Positions 4,678-11,256 of a stretch of 20,496 nucleotides of DNA are shown here, piece after piece (position 1 is the first letter of the stretch; each line of letters begins with the position of its first letter). This DNA is from Promethearchaeia archaeon. Lineage in GTDB: Archaea > Asgardarchaeota > Lokiarchaeia > Sigyniarchaeales > SOKP01. The translations under genes were made by a program, and so were the position numbers. A model generated the notes under the pieces. That model searched no databases, was not told the DNA's origin, and worked only from the letters and a program-made list of their open reading frames with translations. The stretch covers positions 1-20,496 of the forward strand of contig JAWOCD010000044.1 of NCBI GenBank assembly GCA_046483985.1. Direction: 5' to 3'.

Positions 4678-7530
4678 TTAACTTGTGAATTGGGTCATAT
4701 CTTTCTTAACTCTAATTCTCCATTTTCGTATCTCGTCTACAACAAATACGCTGAATGCGGCTAATAGAAGAATGATCCAATAGTAGGGATGAAATAATGG
4801 AACTACATTGAATACTATTCCCAAAGGAGTATAAAGGATTACTAATTGTAATATGAAAGAGGATCCAGTTGCCCAGAATAGATGTTTGTTTGGAAACTTC
4901 CAGAAAGGTTTCACATTTGAAGTACAAGCATATACAAATATCAACTCACATACAACTAAGTTCGTAAATACTATTGTTTGGGCCAATGCGATTTTATATT
5001 CTGTGGCAGTGAATGCTACACCAAAAAATGTTCCTCCATTTAACAAGAATGGATCAATACCAGTCGTCTCCCATATTGGAAATATTACTGTCCATAATAA
5101 CACATAAAGCAGAATGTCTGTAATTGCGGTGTATATTCCAATTAATAGAACTGGACCTTTAATCTCTGAAACAAGTGAAAATCCTTCTCTGGGTTCATCT
5201 TTCATGACATCAGGGTCCGTGGGTGTCAGCCCGAGTACCATTGCCGGAATCCCATCTGTCGCAATATTCAACCATAATATTTGGACTACTGTGATGGGTA
5301 AAGCGAGGAATATCCCTCCGAAAAATGCCATAACAACATAGGCTGTGAGAAGTAAGAAAATCTCATCGAAATTCGTACTTAACATGTATCTGAAGAATCC
5401 TTTTGTCGTTTCAAAAATCCCGCGCCCTTCCTCTATAGCAGCTACGATTGTGGAGTAATCGTCATCCAGCAAAATCATATCGGACGCTTCACGGGTGACT
5501 TCGGTACCCTTAATTCCCATCGCTACCCCTACATTCGCACCCTTTACCGCGGGGGCATCGTTTACGCCATCTCCCGTCATTGAAACCACCATTCTCTCAC
5601 TCTTTAATGCTTTAAGGATTCGTAGTTTATCTTTTGAAGTGACTCGAGCAAAAATATCTACATCTTCAACTCTTCTGAGTAAATCACCATCGGTCATTTC
5701 TTCTAGTTCTGCGCTTGTTATTGCTTCCTCATTATCCGTTAATCCAATCTCCTTGGCAATTGCTATTGCTGTAATTTTATGATCTCCCGTGAGCATGATT
5801 GTTCGAATACCTGCTCTTCGTGCTTCTTCAATGGATTGCTTGACCTCATCTCTTGCGGGGTCAATAATCCCCGCCAATCCGAGATAAGTGAAACCTTGCT
5901 CAATATCCTCTTCGGAATAGTCTTCTTCCAAAGGTTTATATGCGATCCCTAAAACCCGTAGGGCATTTTCGGCAAATTCATTATTTTTGGAAAGAATTTT
6001 TTCCCTTACTTCTCCAATATCTTTTATTTCACCGTTATAAAGCCCTTTTCCAGCTTTCTCTATAAGCACATCTGGAGCCCCCTTAATCAATGAAAATAAT
6101 TCTCCGTCCTTTCTAACCACGACGGACATCATTTTTCGATCGGAATTAAAGGGAATTTCATCAATTTTTTCTACTTCCGTGTTAAGATTCATTTTTTTGG
6201 CAAGAATTTTTAGTGATATTTCCGTAGGATCTCCGATAACATCTGTTTTATTTGTTCCGTCTTCTCGTGGGGTGACTGTAGAGTTATTACAATACTGGCA
6301 GACTTCTAAATATTTCTTTAAATGTTTATTATCATCAATTGGTACGCGCTTTCCCGAATTTCCTACAATTTTTCCTTCGAGAGTATATCCAATCCCCTCT
6401 ACGTCATATTCTTCTCCCCCAAGAAATACTTTCTTAACCGTCATCTCATTTTTCGTTAAGGTTCCTGTCTTATCAGAACAAATAATATTGACCCTTCCTA
6501 GCGTCTCTACAGCAGTTAAAGTTTTCACTAAAGCATTTCGCTGGGCCATTCTTCGCATACCTATGCTCATAACCACGGTAATTACCACTACAAGTCCTTC
6601 TGGTACAGCTGATACAGCAAGACTAATAGCTAGTTCAAATGCATGGATAAGCTCTTGAATTTGATCCGGATCGAATGTAAACCCCTCTATTGCCAGTATG
6701 ATTAATTCTACTATAAAGATAGAAAAACAGAGAATTAGGATAATTATACCTAATGTTTTTCCAAAACTATCAACTTCTTTTTGGAAAGGGCTTTTTTCAT
6801 GGGTTTCTTCCTGTATTTTTTCGGCAATTTTACCCACTTCGGTGTCCATTCCGGTTCTTACTACAATCGCAAGACCATTTCCACGCGTCATCACTGTATT
6901 ACTAAAGACCATGTTTTTTCTATCTGCTAACATTGTTTTTTCGTCATATAATTTAAGATCTTTCTTAACTGGTTGTGATTCTCCCGTAAGAATCGCCTCG
7001 TCAGCGTAGAGTGAATATCCTTTTATTAATCTTGCATCTGCGGCAACTTTATCTCCCTCATTTAATTTAAGTAAATCTCCCGGGACAATGTTTTTAGCAT
7101 CAATTTTCTTAACTTCCCCCTCTCTAATCACTTTTGCGTAATGTGGAGCCATTTTCTTTAAGCTTTCTAAAGCTCTTTCCGCCTTATATTCTTGATAAAA
7201 TCCTAATATAGCGTTTACTATAAGAATAACAGCGATAACAAGGGCATCTATAAATTCCGAAGCCTCTTCACCTATGGATAAGTTATAAATCCCAATAATG
7301 ATGGATATAGCAATAGCAAAAAGTAATAGGTAGACCAGGAAATCTTTAAACTGACTTAGTAAAATTTTCCATGGTGAAACTCCTTTAGATTTCTTAACTT
7401 TATTAGTTCCGAATTTTTCAAGGCGTCTTTTTGCCTCTTCTTCGCTAAGACCATTCTCAATGGATGTATCTAATTCTTGCTCGATTTTTTCAACTTCTAA
7501 CGTGTGTGCATGTATTTCTTTGTTTTTCAT
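4678..7530 (-). CDS. P-type IIA (SERCA/PMR1-like) cation-transporting ATPase, probably Ca2+
   Basis: Motifs TGES, PEGL, DKTGTLT, KGAP, DPAR, TGDGVND, M5 STNFDE and M6 WLNIATDG; 950 aa. Confidence 0.95.
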   Translation of the reverse strand: MKNKEIHAHTLEVEKIEQELDTSIENGLSEEEAKRRLEKFGTNKVKKSKGVSPWKILLSQFKDFLVYLLLFAIAISIIIGIYNLSIGEEASEFIDALVIAVILIVNAILGFYQEYKAERALESLKKMAPHYAKVIREGEVKKIDAKNIVPGDLLKLNEGDKVAADARLIKGYSLYADEAILTGESQPVKKDLKLYDEKTMLADRKNMVFSNTVMTRGNGLAIVVRTGMDTEVGKIAEKIQEETHEKSPFQKEVDSFGKTLGIIILILCFSIFIVELIILAIEGFTFDPDQIQELIHAFELAISLAVSAVPEGLVVVITVVMSIGMRRMAQRNALVKTLTAVETLGRVNIICSDKTGTLTKNEMTVKKVFLGGEEYDVEGIGYTLEGKIVGNSGKRVPIDDNKHLKKYLEVCQYCNNSTVTPREDGTNKTDVIGDPTEISLKILAKKMNLNTEVEKIDEIPFNSDRKMMSVVVRKDGELFSLIKGAPDVLIEKAGKGLYNGEIKDIGEVREKILSKNNEFAENALRVLGIAYKPLEEDYSEEDIEQGFTYLGLAGIIDPARDEVKQSIEEARRAGIRTIMLTGDHKITAIAIAKEIGLTDNEEAITSAELEEMTDGDLLRRVEDVDIFARVTSKDKLRILKALKSERMVVSMTGDGVNDAPAVKGANVGVAMGIKGTEVTREASDMILLDDDYSTIVAAIEEGRGIFETTKGFFRYMLSTNFDEIFLLLTAYVVMAFFGGIFLALPITVVQILWLNIATDGIPAMVLGLTPTDPDVMKDEPREGFSLVSEIKGPVLLIGIYTAITDILLYVLLWTVIFPIWETTGIDPFLLNGGTFFGVAFTATEYKIALAQTIVFTNLVVCELIFVYACTSNVKPFWKFPNKHLFWATGSSFILQLVILYTPLGIVFNVVPLFHPYYWIILLLAAFSVFVVDEIRKWRIRVKKDMTQFTS

Positions 7531-7618
7531 AATTATTTCAAGTATAATATTTAGTGATTAATAAAATATTTGAGTTTATTTTAAATTTAACTTCCAAAGT
7601 GGGTAAATATTTCCTTGC

Positions 7619-7693
7619 GTAGAGATATTAGATAGGGTAATTCAAAGAACAAAGGATAATGGAAAGAAGACTGTTAAACCAAGAGATATTTAG
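7619..7693 (+). pseudogene. Histone-fold protein, 3' remnant
   Basis: Hand translation gives VEILDRVIQRTKDNGKKTVKPRDI*, matching the alpha2-L2-short alpha3 end (R..NG.KTV..RD) of short archaeal/bacterial-type histones. There is an in-frame TAA at 7604-7606 and no N-terminus. Confidence 0.7.
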
Positions 7694-7723
7694 AAAATAA
7701 AATCTTTCGCAATGAGAAAAGAT

Positions 7724-7738
7724 AAAAAAAAAAAAAAA
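7724..7738 (-). terminator. Oligo-T (T15) terminator downstream of the SECIS-bearing gene
   Basis: A15 on the plus strand, about 40 bp beyond the SECIS hairpin. Confidence 0.6.
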
Positions 7739-7777
7739 GAAGTTCAAATGAAACTTTAAAAACGGTTGCTTATACCG

Positions 7778-7819
7778 AAAATCACTCACCTTCTAACATT
7801 TGTAAGGGAGGTCATTTTT
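7778..7819 (-). promoter_or_regulatory. Putative eukaryote-like SECIS element (3' UTR)
   Basis: The minus strand reads AAAA-AUGA-C-CUC-CCUU-AC-AAA-UGUUAG-AAGG-U-GAG-U-GA-UUUU. It has an AUGA/GA core, CUC:GAG and CCUU:AAGG pairing, apical AAA and an outer A:U helix. The AUGA begins 4 nt after the stop of a gene with an in-frame UGA. Confidence 0.8.
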
Positions 7820-8188
7820 TTATGCATTTAACTTTTCCATGGTAAGTTGGGCCATCTTTCTACCGAAACGATTAGTAACTTTCACATCTATCATAATAGT
7901 ATCGTAGGTGTTTAATGTATCGAAAAGACTTTCCTCTATATAGACATCGATTAGTTTATTAAGTTCATTTCTTCCTTCGAATTCATTATATTGCCTAAAT
8001 CGTTCTCTCTCCGATAACTCAGACTTAGATATGAGTTGGACCACATCTTGACAGTAATACCCTGATCAAGATCGGGTCGATTGCTGATACATCGCAATGA
8101 CGAAATCTTTGTTTTTCTGGTCTTGTAGATGTTTATCAAAGTAATCGTTAATTATTCCGGTTGCTTGTTTGCTAATTGCTATTTTCAT
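7820..8188 (-). CDS. Putative selenoprotein (122 aa, Sec41), HesB-like / CC-Se-motif-like
   Basis: ATG at 8188, a single in-frame TGA at 8068-8066 and TAA at 7822-7820. Sequence: MKIAISKQATGIINDYFDKHLQDQKNKDFVIAMYQQSTRS-U-SGYYCQDVVQLISKSELSERERFRQYNEFEGRNELNKLIDVYIEESLFDTLNTYDTIMIDVKVTNRFGRKMAQLTMEKLNA. There is a purine-rich AAGGA/AGGA upstream and a SECIS-like hairpin downstream. Confidence 0.8.
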
Positions 8189-8388
8189 AGTAAATCCTAA
8201 TTCCTTGTAGTTATATAATAAAACCAGTGAAAATTATAAAACATTTAGATTTTAAAATATAATAACGTGAAGGAAATCGCCTTATTTATATAATCTTATA
8301 TTTCTAATCTAAAACAATATAAAATATCGAAATTTAATTTAAATACTATCATATTTGTTTTAAAAATCTACTAAAAAATGAAATAAAA

Positions 8389-11256
8389 ATGGAAAAAAAC
8401 AATTTTAAAGCTCATTCGTTAGAAGTTGACAAAATTGAGGAGTTAACAAATACGGATATTGAAACGGGATTAACAGAAAAGGAAGTAGAGAATCGTCTAC
8501 AAAAATACGGGACAAATGAGTTAGAAAAACGAGAAGGCGTGTCCGCGTGGGCAATTTTTATCAGTCAATTCAAGGATTTTTTAATCTATCTTTTATTCTT
8601 TGCAATTGCAGTTTCATTGGTGGTTGGGTTTTATGAATTATCAAAAGGAGAACAGCCAACAGAATTCTTAGATGCTTTAGTAATTTTTATAATTCTGATC
8701 GTAAATGCGATTTTAGGATTTTATCAAGAATTTAAAGCGGAGAAATCACTAGAAGAATTGAAAAAAATGGCGCCTCATGATGCAAAAGTAAGACGTGAGG
8801 GAAAAGTTAAAAAAATTGATGTAAAAAACATTGTCCCGGGCGATATATTACTCTTAGAAGAGGGAGATAAAGTACCCGCAGATGCCAGATTATTCAAAGG
8901 CTATTCCTTGTATATTGATGAGGCAATACTCACCGGAGAGTCAAATCCAGTTCATAAAAAGCTAAAAGTATGTGAGGAAAAAACCATACTCGGTGACCAG
9001 AGGAATATGATTTTTAGCGGTACAATTGTGACCCGTGGAAATGGAGAAGGAATCGTAGTAGGGACAGGAATGAGTACAGAAATAGGAAAAATCGCAGAAA
9101 GCTTACAAAAGGAGAAACAAGAGGCCAGCCCCTTTCAAGTCGAAGTTGATAAGTTTGGTAAATTATTAGGGAAATTCATACTACTTCTATGTGCTATTGT
9201 TTTTATCGTTGAGTTAATCACAATTATTATCGTAGATGTAGATGCGATGGTAATCAGTGAAGAGGAAATTGAGCAAATTATAACTGCCCTCACAATAGCT
9301 ATTAGTTTAGCTGTATCCGCGGTACCAGAAGGGCTTGTCGTGGTTATTACTGTCGTGATGAGCATCGGAATGCGAAAGATGGCTGAACGGAATGCCTTAG
9401 TCAAAACCCTCACCGCTGTTGAAACGTTAGGACGCGTAAATATAATTTGTTCTGATAAAACGGGAACTCTTACGAAAAACGAAATGACGGTAAAGAAGAT
9501 ATATATGGGAGGAAAGGAATATGATGTAGAGGGTGTCGGTTATGCAATAAAAGGAAGAATATTGGACGATTCCGGTGAACCCGTGGAAATGGATGAATAC
9601 CTGAGGCGATATTTGGAAGTGTGTAGATACTGTAATAATGCAGTTGTGAACCCTAAAGAGGATGGGACTAAAAACACCGATGTTATAGGGGATCCCACTG
9701 AAATATCGCTAAAAGTGTTAGCCATGAAGGAGGGGTTTAAAGAAGATGTTGAAAAACTCGATGAAATCCCTTTTAATTCCGACAGGAAAATGATGTCAGT
9801 AGTGGCAAAAATCGATGGACAACTCTTTGGCTTAATCAAGGGGGCACCCGATGTTTTAATGGAAAAAGCGGGAAAAGCTGTAGATGATGGCGAAATTAAG
9901 GCAATCTCAGAGGTCAAAGATAAAATTCTTGAGCGGAATGAAAAATTTGGAAAGAATGCCCTTCGTGTTTTGGGAATTGCCTATAAACCTTTAGAAGAGG
10001 ATTACGATATTGACACAATTGAAGAAGATTTTACTTACTTGGGATTGGCGGGAATTATTGATCCAGCAAGAGACGAAGTAAAAGCTTCTATTAAAGAAGC
10101 AAGAATGGCGGGAATAAGAACGATTATGATCACCGGAGATCACGAAGTTACAGCAGTTGCCATCGCTCAAGAGATTGGATTAACGGATCGGGATAATGCA
10201 ATCACGGGTACTGAATTGGAAGAAATGACAGACGAAGAATTGAGTAAAAGAGTAGATGGGGTGGATGTTTTTGCACGCGTAACGTCCGACCACAAACTAA
10301 GAATCCTAAAAATCCTCAAATCAAAGGATAAAATCGTTTCAATGACCGGAGATGGGGTAAATGATGCTCCCGCAGTAAAAGGTGCAAATGTCGGAGTTTC
10401 CATGGGAATTAAAGGAACTGAAGTAACCCAAGAAGCATCGGATATGATTCTATTGGATGATAACTATTCGACAATCGTAAATGCGATCGAAGAAGGAAGG
10501 GGAATTTTCGAAACAACAAAAGGATTCTTTCGTTATATGTTAAGTACCAATTTTGATGAAATATTCTTAATTTTAGTGGCATACGTTCTTGCTAAAATTT
10601 CCGTGAATATGTCGGGAATCTTTTTTGGATTTCCGCTCCAACCCATTCAGATTTTATGGCTAAATATTGCCACAGACGGAATTCCGGCTATGGTTCTTGG
10701 ATTTACGCCCACCGATCCAGATGTTATGAAAGATAAACCGCGTGAAGGATTTACATTAATTGAGGAAATAAAAGGACCTGTATTATTGCTTGGAGTTTAT
10801 ACAGCTATTACGGATATTACACTATATGTATTATTATGGACTGTCCTAATACCCGCATGGGCTGAAGCTGGAATTGATCCGAATTTGACAATGGAATTTA
10901 TGAAGGCAGGGACTGAGGCACGCTCATACGCAATTTCATTAAGTCAGACGATTCTTTTCACAAACTTGGTAATTTGCGAGTTAATGTTTGTATTTGCATG
11001 CCCTTCTAATATAAAACCATTTTATCTCTTTCCGAACAAGCACTTATTCTGGGCTACAGGTATTTCGTTTATATTACAGTTAGTTATTCTATACACACCG
11101 TTGGGAATTGCGTTCCATGTTGTACCACTAATACATCCATATTACTGGATAGCTGCGTTTCTTGGAGCGTTTAGTGTGTTCTTGGTAGATGAGATAAGAA
11201 AATACCTGAGACGGAGAAAAAGAAGAGATCGAGAAACAAATCTACTCACTCTATAA
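8389..11256 (+). CDS. P-type IIA (SERCA/PMR1-like) cation-transporting ATPase, paralog 2
   Basis: Same full motif set as 4678-7530, with long identical peptide stretches; 955 aa. Confidence 0.95.
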   Translation: MEKNNFKAHSLEVDKIEELTNTDIETGLTEKEVENRLQKYGTNELEKREGVSAWAIFISQFKDFLIYLLFFAIAVSLVVGFYELSKGEQPTEFLDALVIFIILIVNAILGFYQEFKAEKSLEELKKMAPHDAKVRREGKVKKIDVKNIVPGDILLLEEGDKVPADARLFKGYSLYIDEAILTGESNPVHKKLKVCEEKTILGDQRNMIFSGTIVTRGNGEGIVVGTGMSTEIGKIAESLQKEKQEASPFQVEVDKFGKLLGKFILLLCAIVFIVELITIIIVDVDAMVISEEEIEQIITALTIAISLAVSAVPEGLVVVITVVMSIGMRKMAERNALVKTLTAVETLGRVNIICSDKTGTLTKNEMTVKKIYMGGKEYDVEGVGYAIKGRILDDSGEPVEMDEYLRRYLEVCRYCNNAVVNPKEDGTKNTDVIGDPTEISLKVLAMKEGFKEDVEKLDEIPFNSDRKMMSVVAKIDGQLFGLIKGAPDVLMEKAGKAVDDGEIKAISEVKDKILERNEKFGKNALRVLGIAYKPLEEDYDIDTIEEDFTYLGLAGIIDPARDEVKASIKEARMAGIRTIMITGDHEVTAVAIAQEIGLTDRDNAITGTELEEMTDEELSKRVDGVDVFARVTSDHKLRILKILKSKDKIVSMTGDGVNDAPAVKGANVGVSMGIKGTEVTQEASDMILLDDNYSTIVNAIEEGRGIFETTKGFFRYMLSTNFDEIFLILVAYVLAKISVNMSGIFFGFPLQPIQILWLNIATDGIPAMVLGFTPTDPDVMKDKPREGFTLIEEIKGPVLLLGVYTAITDITLYVLLWTVLIPAWAEAGIDPNLTMEFMKAGTEARSYAISLSQTILFTNLVICELMFVFACPSNIKPFYLFPNKHLFWATGISFILQLVILYTPLGIAFHVVPLIHPYYWIAAFLGAFSVFLVDEIRKYLRRRKRRDRETNLLTL

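Follow-up and report, generated by a model that had tools for sequence, protein, structure and literature searches.

A predicted selenoprotein gene with an IscA/HesB-like fold and a Lokiarchaeial SECIS element in a Promethearchaeia genome

The subject of this analysis is a short gene on the minus strand of contig JAWOCD010000044.1 (assembly GCA_046483985.1) from a Promethearchaeia archaeon of the class Lokiarchaeia. The 20,496 nucleotides of this contig are called the window in the following; they form contig C123 of a 4.06-Mb genome that is 97% complete. From the comparison of sequences we regard the gene as very probably a genuine selenoprotein gene that has been mis-annotated. An internal UGA codon would be read as selenocysteine (Sec) with the help of a selenocysteine insertion sequence (SECIS) hairpin behind the stop codon, and the encoded protein is predicted to have an IscA/HesB fold.

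Reading frame and conservation of the UGA codon

The initial annotation, made from the window sequence, had extended a 74-residue open reading frame (ORF) through one TGA up to an ATG at 8188, and sequence and translation confirm the resulting 122 residues. Between this ATG and the TAA at 7822-7820 the minus strand contains a single frame of 122 codons with exactly one internal stop, the TGA at 8068-8066, which is codon 41 in the context R-S-U-S-G-Y-Y-C. A cysteine (Cys) codon at 8053-8051 follows at position 46, five residues after the Sec (U-x4-C). The features of the gene are the following:

7820..8188, minus strand: predicted selenoprotein coding sequence, subfamily A (motif TRS-U-SG-x-x-C), based on translation with TGA as U, orthologues, the ratio of non-synonymous to synonymous substitution rates (dN/dS) and an AlphaFold model
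8066..8068, minus strand: UGA codon 41, probably read as Sec, in one alignment column that holds U or Cys
8051..8053, minus strand: codon of Cys46, the +5 partner of Sec, found in all 39 Sec forms
7782..7815, minus strand: putative SECIS of the lokiSECIS or eSECIS-like type I, with a 7-bp stem and a loop that contains AAA and ends in AG, based on sequence, covariation and a covariance model

ORF lists made with translation table 11 cut the frame into a 40-residue ORF (8066-8188) and a 74-residue ORF (7820-8044). The protein database holds only the 74-residue piece 7820-8044 for the window gene (P0002), and the gene calls of its relatives are likewise split into a 40-residue and a 74-residue piece. 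The family to which the gene belongs is routinely annotated as fragments; the initial annotation had spoken of a probably unannotated selenoprotein that gene callers would shorten.

A profile search found family homologues in 53 of the 161 genomes of the class, all of them within one taxonomic family. Nearly all of the approximately 70 genome matches contain exactly one in-frame TGA, and a search of the whole phylum agrees with this. Strong matches were limited to the same taxonomic family in the phylum-wide search too (53 of 134 genomes), and weaker matches with one TGA appeared in seven other Asgard taxonomic families. Orthologues from metagenomes and metagenome-assembled genomes are 68-84% identical over the full length; the TGA is kept and both sides of it match. 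A paralogue in the same genome (contig C107) is only 26% identical, and it has a TGA at the aligned codon and keeps the Cys at +5 (U-T-M-S-F-C).

To describe the Sec column we used an alignment of 42 unique sequences from 36 loci, which are 39 Sec forms and three Cys paralogues. The U of all 39 Sec forms shares one column and is followed by Cys at +5; the motif of the clade can be written as U-[ST]-[GMRL]-x-[FY]-C. The arrangement U-x4-C, which had been called unusual, is present, but it is not peculiar to the window copy and is kept throughout the clade. In a second alignment of 31 sequences (A2) the Sec column is the sole invariant one. The three Cys paralogues are uninterrupted genes, flanked in tandem by Sec copies. 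Their U column is occupied by Cys, the +5 Cys is replaced by either Ser or Leu, and no SECIS-like sequence was found after their stop codons.

Among 1.84 billion representative proteins a search identified 42 relatives, namely C-terminal fragments that start just after the UGA, N-terminal fragments of 40 residues, full-length records with Trp (W) at the site, and true Cys forms; of the latter, P0030, P0035, P0042, P0049 and P0041 carry their Cys at the position of U. Homologues with a genuine Trp at the Sec site were considered and rejected, as the three W records that were checked can be reproduced only by a translation with TGA as W. Codon 41 of the homologues is TGA or Cys, and the W records represent gene calls made with TGA as Trp.

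Both parts of the frame are under purifying selection. In comparison with two orthologues the dN/dS of codons 1-40 is 0.049 and 0.113, and that of codons 42-122 is 0.19; the synonymous divergence (dS) from the same orthologues is 0.6-1.5, and the TGA is retained over this distance. The low values for codons 1-40, which are conserved among the homologues, indicate that translation runs through this frame before the UGA and that selection acts on this part.

The SECIS element and the selenocysteine machinery

A hairpin of the form AUGA-stem-AAA-stem-GA had been described four nucleotides after the TAA, and the sequence bears this out. The AUGA (7815-7812) starts 4 nt past the stop codon and is followed by a C, by the 5' stem arm CUCCCUU (7810-7804, 7 nt) and by the loop ACAAAUGUUAG (7803-7793). 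The 3' stem arm AAGG(U)GAG (7792-7785) contains one bulged U (U7788), after which come a U and the GA of the 3' core (7783-7782).

An alignment of the 34 distinct family elements is nearly free of gaps. No variation occurs in the U-G of the 5' core or in the GA of the 3' core, both A residues of AUGA are kept in more than 90%, and the AAA of the loop and the A-G at its end are conserved or nearly invariant. The helix of 8 bp contains standard pairs in 95.2% of its cells, and double changes are seen in six of the eight pairs (29 cells). These measures are not attained by any of 500 shuffled controls, and a helix slid by one to three columns pairs in only 40-61%. The C107 paralogue carries the same element with compensatory changes in the stem. 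One of the two orthologues of the window element has a bulged C and the other a bulged U together with 8 bp; the bulge is therefore a feature of the subfamily A SECIS.

A covariance model built on the family elements (R1) found the window copy with 53.6 bits (E 5.5e-7) in a search of the whole genome, in which it returned the two family copies only. Being too specific in sequence for the SECIS of other selenoprotein genes, it was complemented by a hand-written pattern. In its strict form this hairpin pattern matches 15 times on both strands of the 4.06-Mb genome. As there are so few matches and several of them lie 3' of known selenoprotein genes, the hairpin is beyond what chance would provide. 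Among the matches are elements 15-50 nt after a peroxiredoxin-like gene with two Sec codons (PrxL) and after an HdrA/VhuD pair. They have the same architecture of AUGA, one base, 8 bp, loop, 8 bp, one base and GA, with a loop of 9-11 nt that contains AAA and ends in AG.

The element shares several properties with lokiSECIS (PMC4989117) and with eSECIS-like type I elements (PMC11227280): the location in the 3' untranslated region near the stop, the AUGA...GA core, a stem of 7-8 bp in comparison with the 12-14 bp of eukaryotes, and an A-rich apical loop that ends in A-G and lacks an apical mini-stem. It differs from the described lokiSECIS in its 7-bp stem with the bulged U, in having no pairs other than A:U below the core, in its 3' core, which is UGA where PrxL and VhuD of the same genome have GGA, and in a second conserved mini-hairpin on its 3' side. 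The hairpin is, as judged from sequence and covariation, a SECIS of the Lokiarchaeial type. Of the earlier description as a eukaryote-type SECIS the lokiSECIS architecture and the covarying stem remain; it is the short-stem Lokiarchaeial form and not a full-length eukaryotic element, and it has no match in Rfam.

Some members of the family deviate in this region. AUGU stands in place of AUGA in three elements (L044:1436-1478, L046 and L053:1037-1079) and GUGA in a fourth (L041:515-557), with the rest of the SECIS intact in each case. In one assembly of the close orthologue (L024:3228-3270, GCA_053584915.1) about 9 nt over the 3' GA core are missing; two other assemblies of this sequence contain them, and the gap is probably an assembly or strain deletion. 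In three genes of subfamily B (L026, L045, L049) the stop codon, 1-11 nt ahead of the SECIS, is itself TGA, and the internal Sec TGA is present as well. One codon is therefore both Sec and stop in a single mRNA, and the two are presumably told apart by their distance from the SECIS.

Two further features lie on the 3' side of the SECIS:

7763..7777, minus strand: second small hairpin (CGGU, loop AUAAGCA, ACCG), 4 nt past the 3' GA of the SECIS, based on family-wide folding
7724..7762, minus strand: oligo-U tracts, U5 at 7762-7758 and T15 at 7738-7724, likely an archaeal transcription stop, based on sequence

Across the family the 26 nt past the SECIS fold with a mean of -4.4 kcal/mol, compared to -2.27 +/- 0.35 for shuffled sequences (0 of 200 reach the observed value), and further downstream the value is -0.4. 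The mini-hairpin has 4-6 bp, is rich in GC and begins 3-5 nt past the 3' GA of the SECIS in every family member, with stem sequences that vary between copies. It also occurs behind PrxL, VhuD and other SECIS elements of the same genome (contigs C24, C85, C18 and C8), often with the loop UUGC(A/G)A, and some genes seem to have a lower helix that encloses the SECIS and the mini-hairpin together. A description of this second hairpin was not found in the main text of PMC4989117 or PMC11227280.

Archaeal transcription terminates at oligo-T. The T15 run that had been reported 3' of the hairpin is seen at 7738-7724, and the U5 tract behind the second hairpin lies nearer to the SECIS; judged by their sequence, the tracts between 7724 and 7762 are likely the transcription stop.

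The genome also encodes the machinery for Sec. A tRNA-Sec with anticodon TCA scores 61 bits, above the Rfam cut-off, on contig C17 and is directly adjoined by SepSecS, which 129 of the 135 genomes in the same taxonomic family possess. A gene for SelD that contains one in-frame TGA, a PSTK-like gene (158 bits) and a SelB-like GTPase gene (236 bits, about 4 kb from the tRNA-Sec) complete the set; the latter two score below their models, which were built on other lineages. SelB-like GTPase, tRNA-Sec and SepSecS are clustered in about 6.5 kb (C17:62760-69118).

Two other ORFs with the same kind of element were noticed. On contig C18 a 152-codon ORF (75252-75710, minus strand; L099:106-561, minus strand) has two consecutive TGAs (D-A-D-U-U-S-T), and a lokiSECIS with mini-hairpin 21 nt past its stop. 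It has no match in Pfam and could be a further selenoprotein that has not been listed. On contig C8 a short ORF (26876-27172, plus strand) has an in-frame TGA (G-G-U-S-T) and an N-terminal hydrophobic segment, and a good lokiSECIS (27198) with mini-hairpin follows 25 nt downstream.

Predicted fold and placement of the family

An AlphaFold model computed from the 31-sequence alignment spans both halves of the protein (pLDDT 87.9, pTM 0.79). A strand of residues 29-40 pairs with a strand of residues 43-54, and Sec41 is placed at the tip of a hairpin. The best Foldseek matches are IscA (1r94, E 8.6e-5), SufA, other IscA entries, chains described as “putative Fe-S biosynthesis” and HesB-like proteins, and the probability is 1.00 for 1r94, 2d2a and 1s98. 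VIA-align superimposes the model on IscA with Z 8.9 and a root-mean-square deviation (rmsd) of 3.1-3.2 A over 94-95 of 97 residues, followed by SufA (Z 8.2), 1x0g (8.1) and DsrR (7.6), with unrelated chains at 2.5. An hhalign comparison with 15 PF01521 proteins from other Asgard genomes places U41 on the Cys of GGC(A/S)G (E 7.6e-4), a register that agrees with the structural superposition on IscA. The protein is accordingly predicted by the model to have an IscA/HesB fold.

In comparison with IscA and SufA (PF01521; 1r94, 1s98, 2d2a, 1x0g) the likeness covers almost all of the chain (Z 8.1-8.9, rmsd 3.1-3.6 A, 91-96 residues), with Sec41 in register with the Cys of GGC(S/A)G. The window protein differs from them by Sec in place of this Cys, by the extra Cys at +5 and by the absence of the C-terminal Cys-x-Cys. 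Of the three positions of the cluster ligands only the first is occupied, and this by Sec.

The nearest described selenoproteins are the HesB-like ones of TIGR01911 (HesB_rel_seleno), which occur in Methanococcales and anaerobic bacteria (PMC13188914, PMC1794560). They are of similar size (about 100-130 residues), have the IscA/HesB fold with Sec at the first conserved Cys of the HesB domain, have Cys homologues, and are found in Sec-using anaerobes including archaea. Their motif is UxGP (PMC13188914) and that of the window protein U-S-G-Y-Y-C, that is U-x4-C; the window gene carries a lokiSECIS and not the euryarchaeal GAA_A SECIS or the bacterial in-frame SECIS. With a cut-off of 66.35 bits, TIGR01911 gives no match to the window protein and none in the whole genome at E <= 10; the best member of the family, one of 31, is a Cys form with 22.1 bits. 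The claim that the protein is HesB-like therefore holds for the fold (Foldseek, VIA-align) and for the register of Sec (hhalign), and not for membership in TIGR01911.

A second small family of predicted selenoproteins, NF041239 (Moor_selen_rel, CC/Se motif), was predicted in Moorella thermoacetica, with its motif listed as CxxU (PMC13188914). The window protein has no match to it at E <= 1 (cut-off 40 bits) and the members of the clade reach about 13 bits or less. NCBIfam returned nothing meaningful for the window protein alone. Among the 31 members taken together there are weak matches to PF01521 (three members, best E 1.3e-3), NF038090 (three), NF041239 (five) and TIGR01911 (the one mentioned). 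As the cut-offs of TIGR01911, NF041239 and PF01521 are all missed, the family is filed under none of them. It resembles the HesB-like selenoproteins in fold and in the position of Sec, as a novel variant.

A 109-residue Cys protein of the same genome (contig C45:31952-32281, identical with L056:1501-1830) provides a weak link to both sides, the family and PF01521/NF041239: its Cys aligns with U41, and it scores 21.5 bits with PF01521 and 16-17 bits with NF041239, which nothing else in the genome approaches. A canonical PF01521 protein was not found in the 25 searched genomes of the taxonomic family.

Distant Sec-containing relatives (L088-L095, in genomes G007, G197, G223, G011, G195, G004 and G017) were observed in other Asgard taxonomic families. 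In the six that were inspected the U lies within the same motif, as for example in RG-U-CG or SSS-U-SG, the stop is followed by a SECIS-like element, and Cys residues are present at the C-terminus; HT-U-GGS is a further motif of the group. L091 nearly reaches the cut-off of NF041239 (38.3 bits versus 40, over 85 of 91 profile positions), and two of these Asgard relatives approach PF01521. The combination of U and C-terminal Cys in the distant relatives is an argument that the window clade is a derived branch of wider Asgard selenoproteins with HesB fold. From the comparison of the sequences, the +5 Cys was gained in this clade and its C-terminal Cys residues were lost.

Alternative explanations, gene neighbourhood and possible function

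Three alternatives to a reading of UGA41 as Sec were weighed. The gene could be a pseudogene in a decaying region, with a nonsense TGA in what had been a Cys or Trp codon and an incidental hairpin; other gene fragments do lie in the window, and a single TGA is the commonest nonsense change. Yet the same TGA column is present in about 65 homologues from 53 genomes, the codon has been kept at dS 0.6-1.5 with dN/dS of 0.05-0.19 on its two sides, and the SECIS is conserved and covaries. We give this explanation practically no weight and would regard a nonsense pseudogene as excluded for practical purposes. Nearly as improbable are two small genes of 40 and 74-81 residues with the UGA as a true stop and the 3' hairpins as a structure of the transcript end, although gene callers annotate the region in this way and oligo-U tracts do follow the hairpins. 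The frame is unbroken in all homologues with a fixed TGA column, the Cys-form paralogues are single uninterrupted proteins, and the predicted fold requires both halves for the pairing of strands 29-40 and 43-54. The AUGA...GA core and AAA loop of a SECIS are, moreover, absent behind the Cys forms.

It is also very unlikely, if by a little less, that UGA41 is read as another residue, be it by genome-wide reassignment to Trp or Gly or by near-cognate suppression. The several database records with Trp that would favor this are gene calls with TGA as W on short metagenome contigs. Other genes of the genome do not have an internal TGA, the codon terminates the family genes L026, L045 and L049, its natural substitute is Cys, the usual counterpart of Sec, and the genome has a dedicated tRNA-Sec together with genes for Sec synthesis. 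Decoding of UGA41 as Sec is thus the reading supported by the comparison of sequences. The refuting conditions that the initial annotation had named all turned out in favor of a selenoprotein.

Several observations weigh against parts of the proposed reading. Regarding the SECIS, the stem of the window copy is weaker than the family consensus (7 bp with a bulge compared to 8 bp), the folding energy of the 3' region taken as a single sequence is unremarkable (z = -0.28), and an Rfam scan of positions 7000-9000 at E <= 10 gave matches at chance level only and no SECIS family. The last result agrees with the published report that standard SECIS tools miss Loki elements (PMC4989117). Regarding the fold, the link to IscA/HesB at the level of sequence is weak: the hhalign probability is 25%, Pfam has no match for the window protein, which stays below the PF01521 gathering score of 26.3 bits, and a profile search of the PDB sequences gave one chance match and nothing relevant. 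Regarding function, the window protein lacks the C-terminal Cys ligands that A-type carriers have, and a link to the neighboring ATPase is drawn from gene order among related genomes only.

This neighbor and the region between the two genes are the following:

8189..8388, no strand assigned: intergenic region of 200 bp shared with the divergent P-type ATPase gene, presumably with both promoters, based on gene positions
8389..11256, plus strand: PMR1/SERCA-like (type IIA) P-type ATPase, a neighbor and not part of the gene, based on Pfam and NCBIfam matches

A type IIA P-type ATPase (PMR1/SERCA-like, with the PEGL motif) adjoins the family gene at 30 of 34 loci (L018-L053), nearly always in divergent orientation with a gap of 120-350 bp. 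The ATPase at 8389-11256 is the orthologue of this conserved neighbor; it shares 80% identity with the one that adjoins the orthologous selenoprotein gene of L022. A co-directional ATPase gene downstream (4678-7530, minus strand) is its paralogue with 70% identity. On the other flank of the family gene stand two membrane proteins without a family (15-18 loci) or an aconitase (7 loci). Neither a Pfam nor an NCBIfam family was found for the conserved downstream genes c3, with one transmembrane segment and a beta-rich domain, and c4, with about four transmembrane segments, so that they gave no clue to function. Close relatives have the gene order ATPase, subfamily A, subfamily B, aconitase; in this genome subfamily B and the aconitase are located on contig C107, apart from subfamily A, and the ATPase duplication separates A from B and the aconitase. 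Subfamily B is found alone in many genomes; in several genera it is accompanied by the rarer subfamily A, and a Cys form sometimes stands between the two. A Ras-family GTPase with an N-terminal extension is a further gene product of the window. The conserved divergent pairing suggests, as far as gene order can tell, a shared regulon or task of selenoprotein and ATPase.

From these observations the following mechanism may be proposed. The short kink-turn SECIS 4 nt past the stop would recruit the archaeal Sec elongation factor with Sec-tRNA(Sec), and UGA41, about 250 nt upstream, would be read as Sec, leading to one protein of 122 residues in place of a 40-residue and a 74-residue piece. In the model Sec41 is positioned at the tip of a β-hairpin, where A-type carriers have their first cluster-binding Cys, with Cys46 on the next strand, and the two may represent the active site. 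They could serve as a selenol/thiol ligand pair that binds or passes on a metal or Fe-S center, probably across a dimer as in IscA, or they could form a selenenylsulfide redox pair.

In its plainest form the second option is a thiol/selenol oxidoreductase that works through a Sec41-Cys46 selenenylsulfide and is related neither to metal or Fe-S centers nor to the ATPase. This is a possibility to be taken seriously, even if we would not expect it to be the outcome. Most selenoproteins with a nearby Cys are redox enzymes (PMC13188914), the Sec forms keep the U-x4-C spacing strictly and the Cys forms have lost the +5 Cys, which would suit a pair with a resolving Cys, and the C-terminal ligands of IscA are absent. 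Against it speak the fold, which is predicted to be that of an A-type carrier and not thioredoxin-like, the position of Sec at a cluster ligand, the C-terminal Cys that distant Asgard relatives retain as IscA does, and the lack of a canonical PF01521 protein in the 25 searched genomes. Because of the IscA fold and the position of Sec41 in the model we lean slightly towards the predicted ligand-binding role. A more specific proposal is rather doubtful at present. The protein might be a Se-dependent partner of the ATPase and, as a metallochaperone or redox sensor, load or gate the pump via the Sec-Cys pair. It might instead be a working A-type Fe-S carrier with a Se ligand in a lineage without canonical IscA.

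We found no paper that describes this family. Mariotti et al. 2016 listed five selenoprotein families for the Lokiarchaeia (PMC4989117). Huang et al. 2024 screened over 400 Asgard genomes for homologues of families already known and arrived at a list of seven, with no mention of HesB or IscA (PMC11227280). A review of 2026 gives eleven archaeal families, with HesB-like (TIGR01911) counted as archaeal and not for Asgard archaea (PMC13188914). These surveys are mainly searches for homologues of known families, and an Asgard selenoprotein with HesB/IscA fold is absent from the lists in all three.

The family is carried by about 40% of the genomes within one large taxonomic family of Lokiarchaeia and has distant Sec-containing relatives in other Asgard lineages. 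It provides dozens of new SECIS examples with clear covariation and a second hairpin, which can refine models of the transition from archaeal to eukaryotic SECIS elements. A connection of a Sec protein with a Ca/Mn-type P-type ATPase also becomes testable with it. A coupling of selenoproteins with SERCA is known in animals, and a Se-dependent ATPase partner, if true, would represent an archaeal precedent for it.

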